In this document: in pieces, positions 1,542 through 31,274 of the stretch
How positions within the stretch are numbered: position 1 is the first letter of the stretch
Layout: each line of letters begins with the position of its first letter
From: a phage
Strand: one strand, 5' to 3'
Length of the DNA: 64,000 bases
Sequence record: PZ452612.1
Position numbers and translations under genes: made by a program
Notes under the pieces: model-generated
Databases searched by the model: none
Told to the model about the DNA's origin: nothing
Seen by the model: the letters and a program-made list of their open reading frames with translations, nothing else

Positions 1542-3226
1542 TAGATTCGTTCCCATTGATGAGTGATATCGCCACCGATTGGACGATAAGAAACACCAGT
1601 TTCTTTATCAGTTAGTACCCATTTACCAGGATTTTTTGTAATCAGAGTAGCCGTTACAGGTTCTGCTACGTCATAACTAATAGAGCCGTCCTGAAGTACA
1701 CGGCCCATGTTACGTAATTGCTTAGTCAGAAGTTCCATACCTTTATAATATGCGGCTACCGCTTTAAGTGGATTATTCTTGAAATAACCACCTAATGCAA
1801 TCCAGATAATTGCTACAGCCAAATGATGATACTCGTTAAACGAACTCATCTTTCCATATTTGTAAACTAATGGATTGATGTTAATAGTCACATTACAAGT
1901 TGTTTCGTCAATAGTAAACTGTCCCCAGGTCGGATTAGCGTTGAATTCATCATAACCTGAAACAGCATAAAGCACTTTAGCTTCATCATACAATTTTGGC
2001 CCGTAAATCTTGGTTTCGCCAAAATATCCACGAGGGTCGATAAACTTGACTTCGCCGTTATCAGTAATCATAGTATTACTGAAGTTCGGGTCACCGTGAA
2101 TAACAGAGTACTGTCCCTGAGAACGGGTATGATAACGAATAAGATGTTCTAAAGCTTGCTTCAGCATTGGCTTCAGACGTCCAATCTTAGTGTAGTTCAC
2201 GTGTGTGATTTTACCAAATGAATCAATCAATGGCTGAATGCTTTCACAACGATCAATAACTTTCGTATAGAACTCTTTAGTGAAATCACGGCGAACAGTT
2301 TCAGGACTTACAAAATAAGTGTCTGTGCTGAATTTCAGTGCATCTAAAATTGCATCAACAATTTGTGGACGAGCAAGACTTGATTTGGATTTAATATATT
2401 CAAATGCTGGCTTACCTTTAATACGTTCCATTTCAAAATTATTTTCATTTACCGAAACTAACTGAGGAACTGAATCTGATTTCACTTTCAAATACCATGA
2501 AATCTCATCTTTTTGAAGAGCTCGACCTTGTTCGGTTAACGCGAATTTAGTTACAGTTTCTTCGCCAATTTCAACTGCATTAAAACTACGATTAAGTTCA
2601 CGAACTTCATGAGCTTTTTCAAGTTTAGGCATATCACCTAAATCAATTAGATTCATAAGCTCTGATTTATTGAATGCACTGCCGTAAAGGAATTCTACGA
2701 AATCACGTCCTTTGCAGTATTCATGAATTTCCTCATCAGTAGAACCCATGTAGAATTCCCAGTCTTTGAACTGATAAATTCCTACAACATTACCGCCTGT
2801 TGAACCTACGTTAGTGATATTTTCACCATCGAAATTATATCGACATTCATCACCCTTAACATAGATTGCGTTAACATTCCAAGACCATGAACCAAAATCA
2901 GGAATAATATCACACCAGTTAACAATTACGTTATGGCCATCTAAATCTTTGTATAATTTAGCAAGAGCATAAGCAGAACCATACGCTTCATCAACTGTAC
3001 GAATAGTCACATTGAACCCTTCTTGCTCGCAATAAGCTCGAACAGTTTCAGCAAATTTTGAATGAACTACTACAATAATTTCATCTGCGCCAAGGTCAGA
3101 ATAAATTGTATACAAATTGCTCAGAATAGTGTCTTGTTTATAGTTAACAAGAACTTTTGGAATATGATGCGTTATTGGATACAAACGAGTTGCCAGTCCA
3201 GCACCAAGAATAACAGCTTTTTTCAT
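1541..3226 (-). CDS. Bifunctional sugar-1-phosphate nucleotidyltransferase (N-terminal) / sugar kinase (C-terminal, APH/choline-kinase-like)
   Basis: N-terminus MKKAVILGAGLATRLYP matches the GxGxR loop of NTP-transferases. C-terminal half has IHGDPNFSNTMITDNGEVKFIDPRGYFG, an HGD...N...ID catalytic loop typical of phosphotransferase-fold kinases. 561 aa. Confidence 0.6.
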   Translation of the reverse strand: MKKAVILGAGLATRLYPITHHIPKVLVNYKQDTILSNLYTIYSDLGADEIIVVVHSKFAETVRAYCEQEGFNVTIRTVDEAYGSAYALAKLYKDLDGHNVIVNWCDIIPDFGSWSWNVNAIYVKGDECRYNFDGENITNVGSTGGNVVGIYQFKDWEFYMGSTDEEIHEYCKGRDFVEFLYGSAFNKSELMNLIDLGDMPKLEKAHEVRELNRSFNAVEIGEETVTKFALTEQGRALQKDEISWYLKVKSDSVPQLVSVNENNFEMERIKGKPAFEYIKSKSSLARPQIVDAILDALKFSTDTYFVSPETVRRDFTKEFYTKVIDRCESIQPLIDSFGKITHVNYTKIGRLKPMLKQALEHLIRYHTRSQGQYSVIHGDPNFSNTMITDNGEVKFIDPRGYFGETKIYGPKLYDEAKVLYAVSGYDEFNANPTWGQFTIDETTCNVTININPLVYKYGKMSSFNEYHHLAVAIIWIALGGYFKNNPLKAVAAYYKGMELLTKQLRNMGRVLQDGSISYDVAEPVTATLITKNPGKWVLTDKETGVSYRPIGGDITHQWERI

Positions 3227-3267
3227 GTTGTGGTCCTCATTGGTAAGTAGGTGTATTGTACACTATT

Positions 3268-4083: not shown

Positions 4084-6795
4084 TCAAAAATCGAACATAT
4101 CGAACAGAGATGCTTTCTTCTCGTAATCGAGTTTCGCTGCTGATGTGAATCCTTCAAGTGGTTTAATAAATGTCTTCTCAAGGAGAACAGTGTAGTCCAT
4201 CCAATGAAGTACGTCATCTTTAATTAAATCTGTGATTTCAGTACCAGAAGGCCATGCGATACATTTATCACCGAACGGGTTTCCTTCACGTAAAGGCAGA
4301 ACATATACTTTTTCACCTTCTACAACTTGTGGAGCATCAATATTACCTTTGATAGCTCTGTTATATGTCAGAATTCCACGAATATGGAACGGACATTTAG
4401 GACCAGGGAATCCACCTACATCATATTTAGCAATGTTATTCGCAGAAGATACCGACGCGATGCTAATATAATTCAATTGACGGAATTCTTTTTCAAACTC
4501 TTTAAAATATTCTTGTAATGATTCTTCACCTTCTTGAAGCATACGACGAATACATTCTTTAAGAGCTTTCTGTACTGCTTTAGGGGTCGAAGATTTCTGA
4601 GTCTCTAGACCCATGATTTTGAGTTTAGGCTCAGCGTAACGAGTACCTTCCATATCCCACACGTTTAATGCGTAACGTTTCTTACCAGTCCAGAATCCAC
4701 CAATACCTTTAGAACCGAGCGGAGGACCAGCGATAGCTTCTCGGTCCATGAACATTAAGTGTTGTTTATTGTTCATGTATTCACACATTTCACGGAAACC
4801 TCTATCAATAGCAGGTTCCATACGTTCACGAGCGAACTTATCTAAGAAGTCTACCCAATGGTTGGTATCACGGAATTTAGATTCACCAACCTTATCGATA
4901 ATTTTATCAGCAGATACGTAAATAGAGTCTGTATCACCATAAAGAACGAAAGCTTCACCTTCTGTACCACAAACTTCGTTCAGATATTCATTAACTTTAC
5001 GTTCAATCCACTGTAAAGCCATTTGACCAAATGTTGTGATTGCAGTAGCATTACGCAAATCGTAATAACGGAACCAAACGTTGCCAAGTGCACCATAAAG
5101 TGAGTTGATAAGCAATTTACGGTTAATTTGTGCAGTCATACCTGCAACTTCAGTACGTTGAGCTCTAAACAACATTTCATTAAGAGATTTAGCAGACAAC
5201 TTTTTAATCTTTTCTTTAATCTCGTCAGTGAAGTCGAAACGATAATCAACATCTAATGGTTCGTCAACAGAAAGATTAGGATTATGCAACGCCTCTTTAA
5301 TTATTTCACCATTACGTTGAGCCGCAAGCATATAACCTTTATGTTCTTTACGTTGATTAAAGACCTTAGTGATTTCAGTTGGAACTACACCATCACGGTC
5401 TTTATAATACATCATGCCATTAGGAGAACAACTGTACACATCTGAAGGACGTTCAGCGATTGCGTTAATATAATCATGCAGTGGAGCTACTTTAAACGTT
5501 CCTGCTATTGTTTCCGGGCTAATATTCACTTGGCGAATAATACTTGGATACAGAGATGTAAGGTCGAAACTCATTACATATTTGTATCGATTTGGAATAG
5601 GTTCCTTAACAAAAGCGCCAGGATAAGGTTGAACCGGGTGAGAACGACCTTGTGGAATCACCTTGTTCTGCTCTTTAAGGCTATTAAAAATAATAGCATC
5701 CCATGTTTTAATTGGGCTAAACACAGATTGAATCTGTATCTTAGCATAATAACCCATGTCCAAACTCAAGTTGATGAACTGACGCTTAGCATCAATTTGC
5801 AATACACGATACACGTCGATAATGTTATAAGAAATATATCGTTGGTGATTGCTTTCACGAAGCTTAGAAATAGGGCCGTCATATTTCAGTTTACCAACGT
5901 TCAATTCAAATTCTGAAATGTAATCTAGAGAATACGACGGTTGATTGGTAAAAGAGAATTTTTTGTAAAGGTCGATATAATCAAGAACAGAGATACCGAA
6001 CAATGTAATGATTTCACGAGAACCATACATGTTTTCGATAACTTTAACACGAGTTTTACGATGCGGTGATAAACGTTTCGCAGTAGATTCGCCAAAAATA
6101 TTCTTGATTCGGTTATACACATATGGAATATCAAATGACTCAACGTTCCATCCAGTCAAAATGACAGGAGTTTTCTGTTGCCAGAAGTTGAGATATTCCA
6201 TCAACAATTCTTTTTCGTTATCGAACGGCATATAAATGATTTTATCGATAATTTCAGATGGAACTTCATCACCGCCTTGTTCTTGAAGCTTAGCAGCGAT
6301 TTCAATAGACCATTCTTCTACATTACCATATGGAGAATTCAATAGATCAAATACGTAGAACCTGTCGTCAATTGAGTCATAATGGGTGATAGCATCAATC
6401 GGATGTTTTGCTTGTGATGGCTCAGGGAACCCATCCGGAGATGTTACTTCGATGTCGAAGTTAGCCACACGAATTTTTGTATGGTCGTATTTGATTTCAT
6501 AGTTATAAGTGTCAGACAAATACGCCAATTTGAAATCGTCCATGCCAAGTGCTTCAAGTCCGATATCTTCCATGCGTTTAATCCATTGGGAGGCATCACG
6601 CATATTAGCGAACAACTTACGAGTACACGGCTTACCGTAGATATCGAAATATTTCGTAGCCTGACTTTCCGGACAATGAGCAAACAGTGATGGTTTATAT
6701 TCTACTTCACGAGTACGTTCACGGCCATTAGAATCGATGTAACGTTCAAAAATTGAATCACCAATCTGTTCAACCGTTAAGTAAAATTCTTTCAT
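4084..6795 (-). CDS. 43: DNA polymerase (family B), gp43
   Basis: 903 aa, MKEFYLTVEQIGDSIFERYIDSNGRERTREVEYKPSLFAHCPESQ... Contains exo motifs (FDIEV, YNIIDVYRV) and pol motifs (DTDS, KKRYA). Matches the RB69 gp43 sequence as recalled. Confidence 0.97.
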   Translation of the reverse strand: MKEFYLTVEQIGDSIFERYIDSNGRERTREVEYKPSLFAHCPESQATKYFDIYGKPCTRKLFANMRDASQWIKRMEDIGLEALGMDDFKLAYLSDTYNYEIKYDHTKIRVANFDIEVTSPDGFPEPSQAKHPIDAITHYDSIDDRFYVFDLLNSPYGNVEEWSIEIAAKLQEQGGDEVPSEIIDKIIYMPFDNEKELLMEYLNFWQQKTPVILTGWNVESFDIPYVYNRIKNIFGESTAKRLSPHRKTRVKVIENMYGSREIITLFGISVLDYIDLYKKFSFTNQPSYSLDYISEFELNVGKLKYDGPISKLRESNHQRYISYNIIDVYRVLQIDAKRQFINLSLDMGYYAKIQIQSVFSPIKTWDAIIFNSLKEQNKVIPQGRSHPVQPYPGAFVKEPIPNRYKYVMSFDLTSLYPSIIRQVNISPETIAGTFKVAPLHDYINAIAERPSDVYSCSPNGMMYYKDRDGVVPTEITKVFNQRKEHKGYMLAAQRNGEIIKEALHNPNLSVDEPLDVDYRFDFTDEIKEKIKKLSAKSLNEMLFRAQRTEVAGMTAQINRKLLINSLYGALGNVWFRYYDLRNATAITTFGQMALQWIERKVNEYLNEVCGTEGEAFVLYGDTDSIYVSADKIIDKVGESKFRDTNHWVDFLDKFARERMEPAIDRGFREMCEYMNNKQHLMFMDREAIAGPPLGSKGIGGFWTGKKRYALNVWDMEGTRYAEPKLKIMGLETQKSSTPKAVQKALKECIRRMLQEGEESLQEYFKEFEKEFRQLNYISIASVSSANNIAKYDVGGFPGPKCPFHIRGILTYNRAIKGNIDAPQVVEGEKVYVLPLREGNPFGDKCIAWPSGTEITDLIKDDVLHWMDYTVLLEKTFIKPLEGFTSAAKLDYEKKASLFDMFDF

Positions 6796-6807
6796 TTAAT
6801 TTCCTTT

Positions 6808-6823
6808 AGACGAGTTATTGTCT
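6808..6823 (-). promoter_or_regulatory. Putative gp43 translational operator hairpin (stem AGAC/GUCU, 8-nt loop AAUAACUC) just 5' of the gene 43 Shine-Dalgarno
   Basis: mRNA reads AGACAAUAACUCGUCU AAAGGAAAUUAA AUG. The loop sequence and position match the T4-type gp43 autoregulatory operator architecture. Confidence 0.5.
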
Positions 6824-6853
6824 TTTGTTTGTTGATGAACTTATTATACTCCA

Positions 6854-6873
6854 AATGGGACCGAAGTCCCATT
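6854..6873 (-). other. Stable hairpin (AUGGGAC-UUCG-GUCCCAU) immediately after the regA stop, followed by GGAGUAUAAU
   Basis: Perfect 7-bp inverted repeat with a UUCG tetraloop seen in sequence; no long U-tract follows. Confidence 0.4.
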
Positions 6874-6876
6874 GCT

Positions 6877-7245
6877 TTAATTACCAATTGTATATTTTGC
6901 TTTCAAAGTCCAGTCATCTTTCTGTTTAAAAGAGATAACACGGAAGTTATTAGTCAGGCCAAACAGATCTTCACGAGCAGAGTCTTCAATAACAATCAAT
7001 CCCCAGTCTTCAAGCAACTGAGCAATCGAATCACGTCGCTGATAGTCTTCACCATCAATATCAACCTGACGTCCGTCCATACGCAGCATTTCTTTAAAGT
7101 GGACGATGTAATATTTACCTTGCTTTTGGAGGATATGACAAGACTGGTAAAGGACTTTATCCTTGTTATTAGCGATGCCCATACGGGTTAGAGTCTCTTT
7201 GACTTTCAGAAAATCTTCAGGGTTCTTCAATTTAATTTCAATCAT
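6877..7245 (-). CDS. regA: Translational repressor RegA
   Basis: MIEIKLKNPEDFLKVKETLTRMGIANNKDKVLYQSCHILQK... matches T4 RegA as recalled; syntenic between 62 and 43. Start taken at the internal Met. Confidence 0.85.
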   Translation of the reverse strand: MIEIKLKNPEDFLKVKETLTRMGIANNKDKVLYQSCHILQKQGKYYIVHFKEMLRMDGRQVDIDGEDYQRRDSIAQLLEDWGLIVIEDSAREDLFGLTNNFRVISFKQKDDWTLKAKYTIGN

Positions 7246-7247
7246 TT

Positions 7248-7811
7248 TTACCATTCCAATGCTAATTTTTTAAATTGTTTTTGTTCTTTTACGTTTTTAG
7301 TAACTTCTTTGAGAAATTCATCAGTGACCATGGCCTTCAGTTCTTTAAGGACTATTGGCAGCTTGTTATTTTTTTCAAGGAGCCGCTTATACTCGGTAGC
7401 ATCATTCATGTTGATTGTGTAATGTTTCATCAACAGTTTGATAACTAGTAACTCTGAAGTGTCTTCGACTAGTTTAGCCCATTTAGAGAATCGACGACCA
7501 CGCGGAATTGCCGCCATCATATAGTTGAAGTGCGCTTCATCACTTAATTCAGAACCGACTAAGTTCATCATGTAAACGGCTGGCATACATTCTGGAAACT
7601 GGGATAACGAGTTCTCAACCATAAATTTTGAGTAGTCGACCTGAGCAATTGACATAGATTTCTTTTCATTAATAGCATTAATGATTTTAAAGAATTCATT
7701 CTCAGGTTTTTCTTTAAACATATCAGCACATTTTTGAATCGCATCAGCGTCATTAGACTTCCATGCAATTTGGTGCTCGTTAAGCTGGACGTCATCATCG
7801 AATAAGTTCAT
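7248..7811 (-). CDS. 62: Clamp loader small subunit gp62
   Basis: 187 aa, same length as T4 gp62; position between 44 and regA. Confidence 0.8.
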
Positions 7812-25461: not shown

Positions 25462-26457
25462 TCATTCCTTAAGAAGTTTTACTACCTGAATAAGATTAGC
25501 TCGTTCTGTTTTATTTTTACCGTTTAAGCCTGCTAATCGTGAGATTTCATCGTCAGTCTGTTGAATAGTTACATTAAGTTCGTTAATCAAAGCTTCAAAG
25601 TATTTGATTTGCTCAGCATGTTTTGATTCAAATTTCTGAACCGGAATAACGTCTTGGTTCAGTTCATCAATAAGGTCTTTAAGAGCATCTTCTTGGTTGA
25701 TATCATATTCAACTTCTTTTATTTCTTCAACGAGCTCGTCTTTATATCTAACGTCTTTTAGTCCTGGAGCTGGTCCTGAAATCTCTTCTTTAAGAGTACA
25801 AACATACCCAATACGGTATCCAACGCCGTCTCGCTTGATATCAACTTCGTCGATAAATCCACAATGTTTAAGTCCAGAGCCGATTATGTCAAAATATCCT
25901 TGACGTCGTCCTTCAAACGTTACACGAACTACTAAGACGGTTTTGCCACCGACCTTTTGAAGCTCACATTTATAAAAGTTTGTTGAACCTGAATAACATG
26001 GATGAGTTTTAAAGTTCATCTGACGATCTAGGCCCATTTGTAAACGTGCTGTTACGGCCATAAAACGTGTTTGGTTCTCGTTAAGATGAGCAACAATCCA
26101 TTTCAAAGGCATTTTACCCTGTTCACGGCCGAACAAATCAGTACGTCCTAGATTACGCAGGATGTTGTTAGAGTTAATCATCGACAGAACGTTAAGTTTA
26201 TTCAGCGCGCTGAAGATTCCATCAGCCATTGATTTTCCATAACCTTTACACGCTTTAATAAGTGCTCGCGGCAGATTAGTATAGATTTCAGACGGCATAT
26301 GAAAATCAAATTTACTAGTCAGTAATTGATGAACTTGGATAGCAATTTGCTCATAATTAAGTGCTCTGCGATCGTTATGGTCTTTAAACCATACTTTAAT
26401 CTGTGAAGCACATAAACCGTTAATTTCATGTTTTACCGCATCAGATGTAATGCTCAT
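25462..26457 (-). CDS. Hypothetical protein with C-terminal coiled coil
   Basis: 331 aa; acidic linker then coiled coil. Confidence 0.5.
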   Translation of the reverse strand: MSITSDAVKHEINGLCASQIKVWFKDHNDRRALNYEQIAIQVHQLLTSKFDFHMPSEIYTNLPRALIKACKGYGKSMADGIFSALNKLNVLSMINSNNILRNLGRTDLFGREQGKMPLKWIVAHLNENQTRFMAVTARLQMGLDRQMNFKTHPCYSGSTNFYKCELQKVGGKTVLVVRVTFEGRRQGYFDIIGSGLKHCGFIDEVDIKRDGVGYRIGYVCTLKEEISGPAPGLKDVRYKDELVEEIKEVEYDINQEDALKDLIDELNQDVIPVQKFESKHAEQIKYFEALINELNVTIQQTDDEISRLAGLNGKNKTERANLIQVVKLLKE

Positions 26458-26519
26458 AACTATTTCCTCGGATTGAATTGGAACTCAAAACCATTATAAC
26501 CCGTCCTTGGGTAAAGCGT

Positions 26520-27531: not shown

Positions 27532-28533
27532 TTATTTCAGTAAAGTAACTTCCGAGATTTCTTCCCAACCATCTTTATCAGTTGAAATAAAATCTGCTAC
27601 ATAAAGAGCCGTACGTAATGATACATTGCGAAGACGAGATACGTTAGCCTTCATCCAGGACAATGCTTTATACGTTTCTGCATCCGTCAGACCACGTTTC
27701 TGCATCATGTCAGTAGATAATATTACATCTTCAACTCGAACCATAATCTCTTCATTAGAGTGTACTCCAAGGTCGAGATACACTGAACGAGATACTAAAG
27801 CTTGAAGGTGTGGAGCAAGTTTCGAACCCCGTTCTAACTCTTTATCGATATCAACGTTTGTAATGAAAACGATAGTACCTTCAAACTCAAATTCTTTATC
27901 AATACCCTTATCCTCGAGATAAGATGACGCAGTGCTCCAACAAACTTTGCGTTTATCTCCGGTATCTAATGCTGCTTTAAGAAGGTTCAGGATGTCCATA
28001 TCTGAGAATACGTCAACGTCATCGATTAAGAGAACGCTGTCTTCATCACGGTTGAGCCAAAGTTGTTCGTAAAGGCCAATACCAGAGATTTTACCATTAA
28101 TGCTTTTGTATTTGATGAAACCATTATCATTAGCATTATTAAGTGCTTTATCCAGAGAATACGTCTTACCAATACCAGCTGCACCTGAAATAATGAGTGA
28201 ACGAATTTTGCCATCGATAATGCCATTCGTCATCATGTTCATTACTTTAAAGCGTTTGTTGATACGGGTTTTCATATCTTCAGTGCTTTCAACAACTGCA
28301 ACTGGTGATGTCTCAACTCCTTCCATTACGATGTCTGATTTGAAGACCCATACTCCACGTTCAGAACCATCAATCATAACGAAAATTTTACCATCACCTA
28401 AGTGGGAACATTCAGGATTAAGCTTTGCCGGGAACCAGGTCTTTGTGGCAACATAAGAACCAGAGATTTCGTTATTACGATAGATACCTTTTTTGATTTG
28501 AACGTTGAACATTTTATTCTCCAATTTACTCAT
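27532..28533 (-). CDS. P-loop NTPase (AAA-like ATPase)
   Basis: Walker A ISGAAGIGKTYS and Walker B VLLIDDVD in the C-terminal two thirds of a 333 aa ORF. Confidence 0.55.
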   Translation of the reverse strand: MSKLENKMFNVQIKKGIYRNNEISGSYVATKTWFPAKLNPECSHLGDGKIFVMIDGSERGVWVFKSDIVMEGVETSPVAVVESTEDMKTRINKRFKVMNMMTNGIIDGKIRSLIISGAAGIGKTYSLDKALNNANDNGFIKYKSINGKISGIGLYEQLWLNRDEDSVLLIDDVDVFSDMDILNLLKAALDTGDKRKVCWSTASSYLEDKGIDKEFEFEGTIVFITNVDIDKELERGSKLAPHLQALVSRSVYLDLGVHSNEEIMVRVEDVILSTDMMQKRGLTDAETYKALSWMKANVSRLRNVSLRTALYVADFISTDKDGWEEISEVTLLK

Positions 28534-28611
28534 TTCGTTTCGATAGGTCTATAGTATCATATCCTAAAAGCATGTACACTACTTTTTAAAAATATTTTAA
28601 CCCCCTAAAGG

Positions 28612-28627
28612 GACCCGAAGGTCCCCA
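28612..28627 (-). other. Hairpin GGGACC-UUCG-GGUCCC immediately 3' of the stop of 28631..28897
   Basis: 6-bp GC-rich stem with UUCG tetraloop; followed by UUUAGGGGGUUAAAAUAUUUUU rather than a clean U-tract. Confidence 0.4.
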
Positions 28628-28630
28628 CAT

Positions 28631-28897
28631 TTACTTATCACACTTAGCAACATAATTAGGCATATCACAGAATACAGAGCGAGTAACTACTCGACCCTTT
28701 GACCATGCTTCAGTTGCTTGTCCGGCCGTGCTATTAATATAGCTTGATTTAATGTTCTCAATACCCTGAGAATGTGATGCATTTACCGAACCGTTAGAAG
28801 GCCCAGAAGACTGGTTACCACCAGCTCCTGCGCCCGTGGTAGCACCAACAGAGAATGCCATCATTACTGCGAATAAACCAATTACTAATTTTTTCAT
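28631..28897 (-). CDS. Small secreted protein (signal peptide, two Cys)
   Basis: MKKLVIGLFAVMMAFSVGATTGAGAGG... N-terminal signal-like segment; 88 aa. Confidence 0.45.
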   Translation of the reverse strand: MKKLVIGLFAVMMAFSVGATTGAGAGGNQSSGPSNGSVNASHSQGIENIKSSYINSTAGQATEAWSKGRVVTRSVFCDMPNYVAKCDK

Positions 28898-28928: not shown

Positions 28929-29918
28929 TTATTTATAGTAAGAATTATGATTTTCGAGATAGACTTGCTCAAGGAAGTCATCCCAGAAACTCATATCTAC
29001 TTTTTGTTGCATACCGTTCTTAGCGGCTTGTTCTGACGCATGTTCAACTTGGTCAACGATATCTTCTAGGAATTCTTGCACAGTTTTAAACGTATGTTTA
29101 CCAAGCTTAACATCGAGAATAAATGGAGCATCCTGAAGTGGGTAAACCAGGTCGCCGGTTTTGTAAATTTCCAATAATTGAAGTCCACCACGACATGCAT
29201 GACTCAATGCTTTCCAGTCAATACCTTCGTTAGCTTCTGCCTTACGAGCACGTTCGCCATAGTTCTCTTCCAGTTTAACCAGGATGGCATTGAACTCTTT
29301 ATTGGTTAACGTATCTTGGAATTTACGGTCTAACAGATTATAGAATGTTTGCTTACCTGTTTTCTCGTTTTCGGTTTCAACCCATGAAGCAAATTCACCT
29401 ACAGGCAGAACATTCTTCATATGTGATAAACGAATTACTGCACCATTATCAAAGTATTGTCCCCATTCATTAGAACGTTTAAGGGCTTGACGAAGAACAG
29501 CCAGTCGAGAACCCTTGACACCGTATTTAGAAGCTTGCTTACGGACATACCCTAAATAAGATTTCATGTTAGTGGTATAGAAACGAGACCTGTTATCTTG
29601 AATATACTTCCATACATCAGGCAAATCAGATTTAACTACTAGACTTTGTGGAGTGTGAAGCATATCTAATGCGACGGTTTCACCATCTGCAGCTAGTTTA
29701 AAGAAATATTTGAGACTATATAACTCATGGTCCACGTCGTCTTTTGTGTTCTTAGAAGATGTGTTATTAGTGTTCTTGCTCATGTGTTCTTTAACGTTAC
29801 CGGTCAAGATATCACGAGCATGAGGGACATAAATTTCTTTAAAATCGACGTCAGATTCAGGAGTAGACGTTCCATAAAGGTGGCTACCAAAGTAGCCTTT
29901 CATAATTGTTTTCATCAT
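28929..29918 (-). CDS. Nucleotidyltransferase-fold protein (pol-beta superfamily)
   Basis: GSHLYGTSTPESDVDF near the N-terminus fits the minimal NTase signature G[SG]x9-13 DxD; 329 aa. Confidence 0.5.
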   Translation of the reverse strand: MMKTIMKGYFGSHLYGTSTPESDVDFKEIYVPHARDILTGNVKEHMSKNTNNTSSKNTKDDVDHELYSLKYFFKLAADGETVALDMLHTPQSLVVKSDLPDVWKYIQDNRSRFYTTNMKSYLGYVRKQASKYGVKGSRLAVLRQALKRSNEWGQYFDNGAVIRLSHMKNVLPVGEFASWVETENEKTGKQTFYNLLDRKFQDTLTNKEFNAILVKLEENYGERARKAEANEGIDWKALSHACRGGLQLLEIYKTGDLVYPLQDAPFILDVKLGKHTFKTVQEFLEDIVDQVEHASEQAAKNGMQQKVDMSFWDDFLEQVYLENHNSYYK

Positions 29919-30388
29919 TTAGCCTTATATTCAAGAGTAGGACAGACTTTTTCTTTACGAGCTTTAAGGTATTCGCCTATTAATGATTTCTTACGTTCAA
30001 TAGGCTCAAGTCCATTTTTAATTCGTTCTTGGTTTTGCGCAATGAGCTCAATTTCTTTATAATATTTTCTGTCGTTATATTTGTCTAACAACCAAGACGG
30101 ACCAATTACCAACCCGGTAGCAATAAAAGCCATGACTGCTACAATTAAAATGCCTACACCAATTGAGGCTGGAACTAATGTCCATAGACTGCTAAAAACA
30201 AAGAATTTAGTTAAAATTTCCTGGCCAATGATTGTGACTGCTGCTAAAATCGCAAATCCAATAATTGAAACAGCCAATACCGGGATTAACGTTTTCCAAA
30301 AATAAGCACACAACGTTTTCGGACGATTCCATGTACTATTGAACGCGGCATAAATTTTAAAGTGCCAAGAGTTTTCATTGATAATCAT
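29915..30388 (-). CDS. Integral membrane protein
   Basis: 157 aa with at least three hydrophobic helices. Confidence 0.45.
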   Translation of the reverse strand: MIINENSWHFKIYAAFNSTWNRPKTLCAYFWKTLIPVLAVSIIGFAILAAVTIIGQEILTKFFVFSSLWTLVPASIGVGILIVAVMAFIATGLVIGPSWLLDKYNDRKYYKEIELIAQNQERIKNGLEPIERKKSLIGEYLKARKEKVCPTLEYKAK

Positions 30389-30397
30389 AATAATTCC

Positions 30398-30928
30398 TTA
30401 TTTCAAAGTTGGGATAATAGAATCGAGATAAGCTTTAAGAGCAACTGCTTCATCTTTGTCTAATGTAACGATATGTTGACGAAGGTCATCAATTTGACGA
30501 ATAACTACAACATCGCCATCTTCATAAGAAGGATTAACGCCTAGGACCGTTGTATAGTCAGGGCGGTCCTGATTTGTAATAAAAGCATTACGGCATTTAG
30601 CCCATTGAAGTTTGGCCTTTTTGGCTATTTCAGATTCCATTAATTCTTTCACCTTAGTGACGAATGTTTTCCAATTATTGATAGAAAGGCATTCATCTTC
30701 TGTTTCGATATTAACCCCACTATAAAGACCGTGATAAAAACGAACTTGAAGGTCTTCATCGATGTTAATTACAGATGCATGGCCTGGCGGATTGAGTTTC
30801 AAAATCTTGTCCAGTTCCATAGGAAGAATAGTAACAGAATCATCTTCTTGTGTCAGAACGTAAGCATAACCACGTTTTTCGATACATAAATCACCAAACA
30901 ACTCGGTTGTTTCAATTACAATTTTCAT
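30398..30928 (-). CDS. Hypothetical protein
   Basis: Track ORF trimmed to the ATG at 30928 (MKIVIETTELFG...); the track start appears to be a non-ATG codon. Confidence 0.45.
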   Translation of the reverse strand: MKIVIETTELFGDLCIEKRGYAYVLTQEDDSVTILPMELDKILKLNPPGHASVINIDEDLQVRFYHGLYSGVNIETEDECLSINNWKTFVTKVKELMESEIAKKAKLQWAKCRNAFITNQDRPDYTTVLGVNPSYEDGDVVVIRQIDDLRQHIVTLDKDEAVALKAYLDSIIPTLK

Positions 30929-30929
30929 A

Positions 30930-31109
30930 TTATTCACCAATTAAAGTTTCAACAAAATTCACCAAAGCATTCTGGCACGCATCAACCTGATTTTCATAAA
31001 AGTCTCCGTTATCATTTACCGCGTGATAAGCTACATCATTCAAATCTGAATCGGCTTCACGTAGGTCACGGATAAGGTCCATCAATTTATTAGCTTGTTC
31101 ACGGGTCAT
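30930..31109 (-). CDS. Small acidic protein (59 aa)
   Basis: Manual translation MTREQANKLMDLIRDLREADSDLNDVAYHAVNDNGDFYENQVDACQNALVNFVETLIGE; ATGA overlap with the upstream small ORF. Confidence 0.3.
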   Translation of the reverse strand: MTREQANKLMDLIRDLREADSDLNDVAYHAVNDNGDFYENQVDACQNALVNFVETLIGE

Positions 31110-31244: not shown

Positions 31245-31274
31245 ACTATAACATAGTCCTACCAAGATGTAAAC
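31245..31274 (-). promoter_or_regulatory. Early-type promoter (GTTTAC -35, 18-bp spacer, TATAGT -10) embedded in a perfect 10-bp-arm palindrome GGTAGGACTA-N8-TAGTCCTACC
   Basis: Minus strand reads GTTTACATCTTGGTAGGACTATGTTATAGTAGTCCTACC; the palindrome spans plus 31237..31264. Confidence 0.5.

Follow-up and report, generated by a model that had tools for sequence, protein, structure and literature searches.

Which molecule does the nucleotidyltransferase (NTase) encoded on the minus strand at 28929..29918 of phage sequence record PZ452612.1 modify, and in what process? The window, by which we mean the whole 64,000-nucleotide (nt) stretch analysed and to whose coordinates all positions below refer, had yielded an original prediction of a minimal Pol-beta-type NTase of 'unknown target'. 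That description is outdated. The protein almost certainly belongs to the RlaP family ('RNA repair pathway DNA polymerase beta family', PF10127), bacterial members of which act on RNA 3'-OH ends, and its phage T4 ortholog, NrdC.11, has been named an RlaP (PMC12776372). Within this family it falls into a distinct 'long' subfamily whose genes are linked, in viruses and in cells, to genes for RNA end healing and sealing. Our results favour a role in tRNA repair, which we regard as probable though far from assured.

A long RlaP-family nucleotidyltransferase

The open reading frame (ORF) is real. As listed, it encodes 329 amino acids (aa), opening with two in-frame ATGs whose ATGATGA overlaps the stop codon of the upstream ORF (AAATGATGA) and closing with a stop codon at 28929..28931; RefSeq places the start at the second ATG (29915), which gives 328 aa. 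The region matches Escherichia coli O157 typing phage 3 (NC_041863.1; Straboviridae, Tevenvirinae, Mosigvirus) with 100% identity, and the protein is 100% identical to YP_009592866.1 of that genome, named 'nucleotidyltransferase' in RefSeq. The ORF listing, these identities, PF10127 and phrog_388 together define a coding sequence for a long-type RlaP-family NTase, orthologous to T4 nrdC.11 (78% aa identity over the full length). A six-frame hidden Markov model (HMM) search of the whole phage genome found this single RlaP and no second, short one. A homolog is carried by 1521 phage records, which span T4-like phages of Escherichia, Klebsiella, Aeromonas, Acinetobacter and Vibrio together with Sinorhizobium phage phiM7, Rheinheimera phage Barba19A and jumbo phages.

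Membership in the family is supported at several levels. PF10127 is matched with 49.5 bits (gathering score 23; E = 5.9e-13), and phrog_388 ('nucleotidyltransferase') is matched end to end (E = 4e-126); no other Pfam family, PF01743 included, and no NCBIfam model matches the protein. Among 1.84 billion representatives of clusters at 50% identity, searched exhaustively, 3242 relatives were retrieved at E<=1e-3, of which 742 reach E<=1e-30, the matches being mostly full-length, and 117 of 118 divergent members of the subfamily also match PF10127. The name 'thioredoxin', attached to many GenBank and UniRef entries (for example, AV110, mobillu and ATK47), was considered and rejected: the sole Pfam match is PF10127, the structural model is an NTase, and neither the Pfam scan nor the model reveals a thioredoxin fold or a CxxC-motif family. 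The label seems to have been inherited from the T4 locus name nrdC.

The catalytic signature GSHLYGTSTPESDVDF (residues 11–26; 29841..29888, minus strand) contains G11, S12, D23 and D25, and the succession F10-G11-S12, then D23-V-D25-F, fits the Pol-beta pattern hG[GS]-x9-13-[DE]h[DE]h. This minimal motif is weak evidence by itself, since it turns up in 3 open frames of the window where residue shuffles give 0.9 +/- 0.9; the assignment is carried by PF10127, phrog_388, the homologs and conservation. The pattern also appears in IGSGLKHCGFIDEVDI, around residue 201 of a 331-aa phrog_2257 protein with no Pfam match (25465..26484, minus strand), and within the frame 1544..3262 (minus strand), both probably by chance.

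Conservation was assessed across 144 representatives with 34–56% identity (145 sequences with the query) and in a second alignment of 118 sequences. In the N-terminal part, G11 is retained in 100% of the representatives, S12, D23 and D25 in 99%, D63 and D85 in 97% and D61 in 96%; towards the C terminus, K236 and R243 reach 99–100%, H240, R223 and G273 99%, D234 98%, K271 97% and W235 at least 90%, with K236, R243 and G273 invariant in the 118-sequence alignment. The two aspartates of the DxD on which the original prediction hinged are thus conserved. D23 and D25 are predicted to be the first two metal-binding carboxylates, and D63, which belongs to D61-V-D63 (29730..29738, minus strand) and lies on a predicted strand (62–68), would be the third catalytic carboxylate. 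The conserved C-terminal region, in turn, may contribute to the binding of the nucleoside triphosphate (NTP) or of RNA.

The AlphaFold2 (AF2) model built from the 118-sequence alignment is confident (pLDDT 94.2, pTM 0.85) and has Pol-beta NTases as its only structural neighbours, which bears out the fold that had been proposed. Against the PDB, Foldseek places kanamycin nucleotidyltransferase/ANT(4') at the top (E = 2e-3) and also retrieves HalB, LinB, AadA and MNT; against BFVD, it retrieves 33 viral 'nucleotidyltransferases' at E<1e-3, and the superpositions with short viral NTases extend along most of the latter (TMt 0.5–0.7, 12–14% identity). Sequence searches of the PDB with the protein, the long-type profile and the canonical RlaP profile gave no relevant match, and none of the solved structures retrieved is a close one, the crystal structure of Pseudomonas fluorescens RlaP (PfRlaP) being absent from the PDB set searched.

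Three parts can be distinguished along the protein, all on the minus strand. The N-terminal Pol-beta catalytic domain (residues 1–134; 29517..29918) comprises strands 3–10, 24–31, 45–49 and 62–68 followed by helices. Next comes a subfamily-specific insert of about 95 aa (residues 135–228; 29235..29516), delimited from the AF2 secondary structure and made up of a helix (135–155), three strands (177–201) and a further helix (206–228). The C-terminal helical region (residues 229–329; 28932..29234) holds the motif DWKALSHACR (residues 234–243; 29190..29219) along with P260, K271 and G273, and the model has helices at residues 206–328. In canonical RlaP, the crystal structure described in PMC12776372 has a helical domain at the C terminus, the last helix of which packs back onto the NTase domain.

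How this architecture relates to that of canonical RlaPs was addressed with a set of 15 short RlaPs of 255–290 aa, two of which were checked against Pfam and match PF10127 over its full length with 175–212 bits. In a profile–profile comparison, only residues 3–131 align (probability 94.5%, E = 7.6e-8), pairing GS with SG, D23 and D25 with the invariant DxD, D63 with the invariant D88 and D85 with an invariant Glu. The edges of the insert are conserved and its interior is variable, with zero conserved positions between residues 139 and 219. When residues 135–228 are deleted, hhalign runs collinearly to the canonical C terminus, raising the score from 61 to only 65, and in this insert-deleted alignment only, K236, H240 and R243 of DWKAxSHAxR pair with K, Y and R of KxYxYALR. 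These comparisons hint that the long subfamily is an RlaP into which about 95 residues were inserted. The NrdC.11 protein belongs to this distinct 'long' subfamily, and a published sequence-similarity network of PF10127 likewise assigns T4 NrdC.11 to a separate cluster, number 5 (PMC12776372).

Two irregularities were seen among the phage records OL964745.1, OR896832.1 and MK573636.1. One T4 record keeps only the last 12% of the gene, as fits a laboratory genome-reduced strain, and GoldenSnicker and PHB13 give a two-piece match amounting to 67% of the query, with the central (insert) region either divergent or interrupted.

Linkage to RNA end-healing and end-sealing genes

The gene neighbourhoods of viral relatives were surveyed in 80 loci kept from 457 relatives, the lead sequence being a distant phage homolog. 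A gene for an Rnl1-type or Rnl2-type ligase, Pnkp, RtcB or a CCA-type enzyme lies within 8 kb in 32 of the 80 loci. Zero ORFs intervene in 16 of the 31 with a measurable distance, and all neighbours but one are on the same strand. Pfam matches resolve several direct arrangements: T4-type Pnkp–NTase–Rnl1 (L150), NTase–Rnl2-like RNA ligase (PF09414)–Pnkp (L118), Rnl1–NTase (L159) and NTase–ATP-dependent ligase–RtcB (L100 and L133). The phiM7 homolog is flanked by two RNA ligases, and in Barba19A a CCA-adding enzyme is encoded two genes away from the homolog. None of the 80 viral loci contains a short RlaP.

In seven viral contigs (L091, L092, L095, L117, L123, L132 and L142), an ORF of 160–190 aa overlaps the NTase stop codon. 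All seven ORFs are weakly similar to CCA-adding enzyme, and the one copy scanned against Pfam, that of L091 (ORF 1754-2269), matches the HD phosphohydrolase domain. A pair of NTase and HD ORF would resemble a CCA-adding enzyme split into its NTase head and its HD phosphoesterase. Beside the pair, L091 also carries a fragment of PHP/DNA polymerase III alpha with an intein (Hint) module (L091:2262-3671).

For cellular relatives, 80 loci with 33–52% identity were kept from 156 relatives, spread over Desulfobacterales, Nitrospirota, Alphaproteobacteria, the candidate phyla radiation (CPR) and archaea. Neighbours were identified by de novo clustering followed by Pfam, and because many contigs are short, the counts are lower bounds. 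RtcB was found in 7 of the 80 loci, bacterial Pnkp (kinase–phosphatase–RNA_lig_T4_1) in 5, Hen1 in 5 and Ro60/TROVE in 3, at least one of the four being present in 13. Repair genes are rare, and chance would yield well under one such locus in 80, by an estimate that is not a computed control. The Pnkp stop overlaps the NTase start in L054 and L058. In L029 (1558-13383), a Nitrosospira metagenomic contig, a single strand encodes Ro60/TROVE, RtcB, a long RlaP, a short RlaP, Hen1 and Pnkp, which makes this locus a compound RNA-repair gene cluster.

A canonical RlaP is a neighbour in 17 of the 80 cellular loci, nearly always immediately downstream on the same strand. The long gene precedes the short one (full-length PF10127), often with overlapping stop and start codons, in L012, L015, L020, L025, L029, L030, L041, L053, L058, L061, L066, L070, L076 and L078, the pair being located at about 6000-7800 in most tandem loci. 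Catalytic residues are retained in both members of these tandems. In L073 (5979-7784), the long and short RlaPs appear to be fused into one protein of 601 aa.

Part of this picture was already in place: the gene is catalogued as the ortholog of T4 NrdC.11, its family is named, a prediction of its function has been published and biochemistry is available for its short relatives. Beyond the literature consulted, our survey delineates the long subfamily with its probable insert, and documents both the frequent tandem with canonical RlaP in cellular repair operons and, in viral contigs of diverse kinds, the immediate proximity of Pnkp and Rnl1 genes. PMC12776372 is silent on tandem or paralogous RlaPs; our comparison with the literature excludes the 2016 paper by Burroughs & Aravind that named RlaP.

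A probable role in tRNA repair and its alternatives

The biochemistry of short bacterial RlaPs offers a framework for interpreting these neighbourhoods. Carruthers, Fatma and Huang (bioRxiv 2025; PMC12776372) reported that the P. fluorescens and P. aeruginosa enzymes add 1–2 nucleoside monophosphates (NMPs) to RNA 3'-OH ends, taking any NTP as well as dATP, requiring a free 3'-OH and preferring Mn2+. With a mimic of a cleaved tRNA, PfRlaP favours the 3' end of the 5' half over the acceptor-end strand; in total E. coli RNA, the enzymes label full-length tRNAs, rRNA-sized species and fragments, and they label neither DNA nor E. coli protein. They partly restore the aminoacylation of a tRNA without one anticodon-loop nucleotide, and their 3'-OH product fits 5'-P ligases such as Rnl1, not RtcB. 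In the same paper, T4 NrdC.11 is listed as an uncharacterised RlaP. Earlier, Iyer et al. (2021; PMC7824862) had predicted that phage RlaPs replace nucleotides removed by RloC-like nucleases before ligation.

In the mechanism that we favour, phage Pnkp would first heal the broken ends by removing the 2',3'-cyclic or 3' phosphate. The NrdC.11-type NTase, with D23, D25 and D63 holding two divalent metals, probably Mn2+, would then transfer 1–2 NMPs from NTPs to the 3'-OH of an RNA that has been broken or trimmed, in all likelihood a host tRNA cleaved by an anticodon nuclease, and Rnl1 (or Rnl2) would finally seal the 3'-OH/5'-P nick. As a result, nucleotides excised by 'smart' nucleases such as RloC would be restored and host tRNAs would stay usable. 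Family membership, conservation of the catalytic residues, the NTase fold and the linkage of the subfamily to repair genes come directly from our analysis. By analogy with the bacterial enzymes, an RNA 3'-OH is the expected substrate; the sequence in which Pnkp, the NTase and Rnl1 would act is conjectural, as is the host nuclease involved. Taken as a whole, NMP addition during Pnkp–Rnl1/Rnl2 tRNA repair is the reading to which we give moderate confidence. The phage genome encodes Rnl1, Pnkp and Rnl2, all outside the window. ARAGORN found no tRNA genes in the window or in the rest of NC_041863.1, whereas T4 carries a tRNA cluster. With no tRNA genes of its own, the phage relies entirely on the tRNAs of its host, and their repair would be all the more valuable to it.

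Several observations weigh against this scenario. The flanks hold no repair gene in 67 of the 80 cellular and 48 of the 80 viral loci, and in small phage genomes some proximity is expected by chance, such that only the skew towards adjacency argues for real linkage. In this phage as in T4, pnk and rnl lie >50 kb from the NTase gene, and its local neighbours (a membrane protein, an 88-aa secreted ORF, the P-loop nrdC.10 ortholog and a y05I-like gene) are uninformative on RNA repair. The PF10127 match spans residues 7–152 and only positions 23–148 of the 249 in the profile, the C-terminal half alone gives no significant profile match, and the published biochemistry concerns short RlaPs, which detectably share just the N-terminal domain with the long subfamily. 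The authors of that work concede that non-templated addition gives the correct nucleotide in only a fraction of events (PMC12776372). Finally, T4 tolerates the loss of nrdC.11–mobD.3, which is dispensable in the laboratory (PMC9825161), and we found no reported phenotype for the loss of nrdC.11.

Could the same chemistry serve another target? The enzyme might maintain the 3'-terminal CCA of tRNAs, or other nibbled RNA 3' ends, either assisting the CCA-adding enzyme or standing in for it, an option that we hold to be rather unlikely. In bacterial CCA-adding enzymes, an HD domain provides 2',3'-cyclic phosphodiesterase activity, and the HD-domain phosphohydrolase, weakly CCA-enzyme-like, that overlaps the NTase stop in seven viral loci speaks for this option, as does the presence of genuine CCA-adding enzymes beside the homologs of Rheinheimera phage Barba19A and L149. 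On the other hand, the E. coli host owns a CCA-adding enzyme, and ligases and Pnkp are the commoner and tighter partners, which points to the sealing of breaks rather than to the maintenance of ends. The published labelling cuts both ways, with full-length tRNAs and rRNA-sized species accepted as substrates and yet the 3' end of the 5' half favoured over the acceptor-end strand (PMC12776372). A more hostile use of the activity, in which the tailing of host tRNA or mRNA 3' ends blocks aminoacylation or marks RNAs for decay during early shut-off, in the manner of MenT/AbiEii-type NTase toxins or of oligo-tailing enzymes, would be compatible with the intact active site of the NTase fold, with the apparently early transcription unit (promoter and terminator consensus, and the T4 annotation) and with the ability of RlaPs to extend intact RNAs using all four NTPs (PMC12776372). 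We nevertheless judge it highly unlikely: the protein matches no defence or toxin NTase in PADLOC and no Pfam family besides RlaP, the subfamily is linked with repair enzymes rather than with antitoxins or nucleases, and a toxin role is hard to square with cellular copies inside Pnkp–Hen1 and RtcB repair operons.

The structural matches invite two further explanations. The resemblance to HalB raises the idea of a synthase of oligonucleotide or nucleotide signals (HalB-like oligodeoxyadenylate or CD-NTase-like) that would act as a decoy silencing an abortive-infection effector. That match is modest (Foldseek E ~1e-2, TM 0.25–0.35) and has no counterpart in sequence; PADLOC returned nothing for the NTase protein or its three neighbours, the gene contexts are those of RNA repair and bacterial RlaPs stop after 1–2 additions, all of which leaves this idea with a very slim chance. 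Equally improbable, in our view, is the nucleotidylylation of a small molecule or protein, such as a host factor or a HEPN toxin, as carried out by kanamycin-NTase, LinB, GlnE, DrrA or MNT-like enzymes. Kanamycin nucleotidyltransferase/ANT(4') does head the Foldseek matches, followed by LinB, AadA and MNT, but these are distant (TM ~0.3, 8–12% identity) and reflect a shared NTase core and helical domain, tested PF10127 members leave E. coli proteins unlabelled (PMC12776372), and the subfamily sits among RNA repair genes. No HEPN or effector gene adjoins the NTase gene. Of the three roles that had initially been listed for the protein, the evidence favours the tailing of RNA 3' ends, in a setting of anti-defence, and not toxin neutralisation, for which no HEPN partner lies alongside.

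Within the tRNA repair reading, the cellular tandems raise a more specific possibility. Because long RlaPs carry the insert of about 95 residues and, in cells, typically occur side by side with canonical RlaPs, both with intact active sites and inside Pnkp–Hen1, RtcB or Ro60 repair operons, a two-enzyme step of nucleotide restoration is suggested, in which the two proteins might form a heterodimer or split the labour by nucleotide or by type of RNA end, much as the CC-adding and A-adding enzymes do. Long RlaPs could then be a functionally distinct partner enzyme and an overlooked third component of T4 Pnkp–Rnl1 tRNA repair, a tentative proposal that we consider possible without favouring it. 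On this proposal, T4-like phages may have kept only the long form, and NrdC.11 may defeat nucleotide-excising anticodon nucleases such as RloC.

The reversal of PrrC cleavage by T4 Pnkp and Rnl1 is the founding example of RNA repair, and the host nuclease RloC has been proposed to defeat this repair through excision of the wobble nucleotide. If NrdC.11-type enzymes indeed refill such gaps, they would represent a third conserved phage component of this arms race. Independently of this scenario, a widespread phage ORF often labelled 'thioredoxin' or 'hypothetical' gains a family name and a testable activity, and a long subfamily that frequently accompanies canonical RlaP in bacterial repair operons is now set apart.

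Local transcription unit and relation to known systems

The position of the gene is kept with respect to T4, in the nrdC–tk region with its short, mostly unnamed early genes. Upstream, on the minus strand, are a y05I/mobD.1-like gene (30398..30940; Pfam T4_y05I_N/C) and a gene for a 157-aa multi-pass membrane protein (29915..30388; phrog_944, no Pfam match) whose stop overlaps the NTase start; the latter takes the site of the T4 homing-endonuclease gene mobD, which is absent. Downstream, an 88-aa ORF whose N terminus resembles a signal peptide (28631..28897, minus strand; phrog_2243) is located between nrdC.11 and nrdC.10, where T4 has just a terminator and an early promoter. It is followed by the nrdC.10 ortholog (27532..28533, minus strand; 333 aa, phrog_1250), a conserved ATPase-like protein with a P-loop region, sub-threshold matches to AAA_22, AAA_16 and nSTAND3 and a weak clamp-loader-like PHROG match.

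Consensus scanning located a sigma-70-like promoter match (TTTACA-17-TATAGT with TG, 10 of 12 matches) at 31245..31273 (minus strand), a candidate early promoter for a unit comprising the y05I-like, membrane-protein and NTase genes; across the region, promoter-like sites are no more numerous than shuffling would lead one to expect. A terminator-like hairpin at 28599..28615 (minus strand), which comes after both the NTase gene and the 88-aa ORF, is the probable end of this early transcription unit. In the T4 annotation, the terminator comes directly after nrdC.11 and is followed by the early promoter for nrdC.10. An Rfam scan of the window gave no match. Placing the gene in an 'accessory island', as originally suggested, is reasonable in view of the plastic nrdC–tk region, the replacement of mobD and the tolerated loss in T4; the immediate neighbours give no hint of function, and the telling contexts are those of other genomes.

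Among known systems, the Hailong protein HalB (PDB 9dbh/9dbj) resembles the phage protein in structure only, with 16% identity and no profile relation; HalB makes oligodeoxyadenylate within a defence system, whereas the protein described here matches no defence model and its subfamily is found in RNA repair contexts. Class II CCA-adding enzymes (PF01743 plus HD) are likewise Pol-beta enzymes that perform non-templated addition to an RNA 3'-OH for repair, and their genes, or stand-alone HD genes, adjoin the long-type RlaP gene in some phages. By contrast, PF01743 is missing here, and the RlaPs tested so far use all four NTPs and stop after 1–2 additions. The counterpart in T4, NrdC.11, occupies the same place in the locus order, between the y05I/mobD.1-like gene on its upstream side and nrdC.10 on its downstream side, and is also a RefSeq 'nucleotidyltransferase'; it has 336 aa against 329 here, T4 has mobD directly upstream where this phage has the membrane protein, and this phage has the extra 88-aa ORF before nrdC.10. 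Canonical bacterial RlaPs, encoded in the rtcB–rlaP–rtcA operons of P. fluorescens and P. aeruginosa, belong to the same PF10127, display the same GS/DxD/D constellation and are likewise associated with RNA repair genes, such that a shared chemistry would be expected. The long protein exceeds them by about 60–75 residues, aligns with them significantly over just its N-terminal ~130 residues and has DWKAxSHAxR as its C-terminal motif in place of KxYxYALR. In cells, the long type is often encoded in addition to the canonical RlaP, not instead of it.

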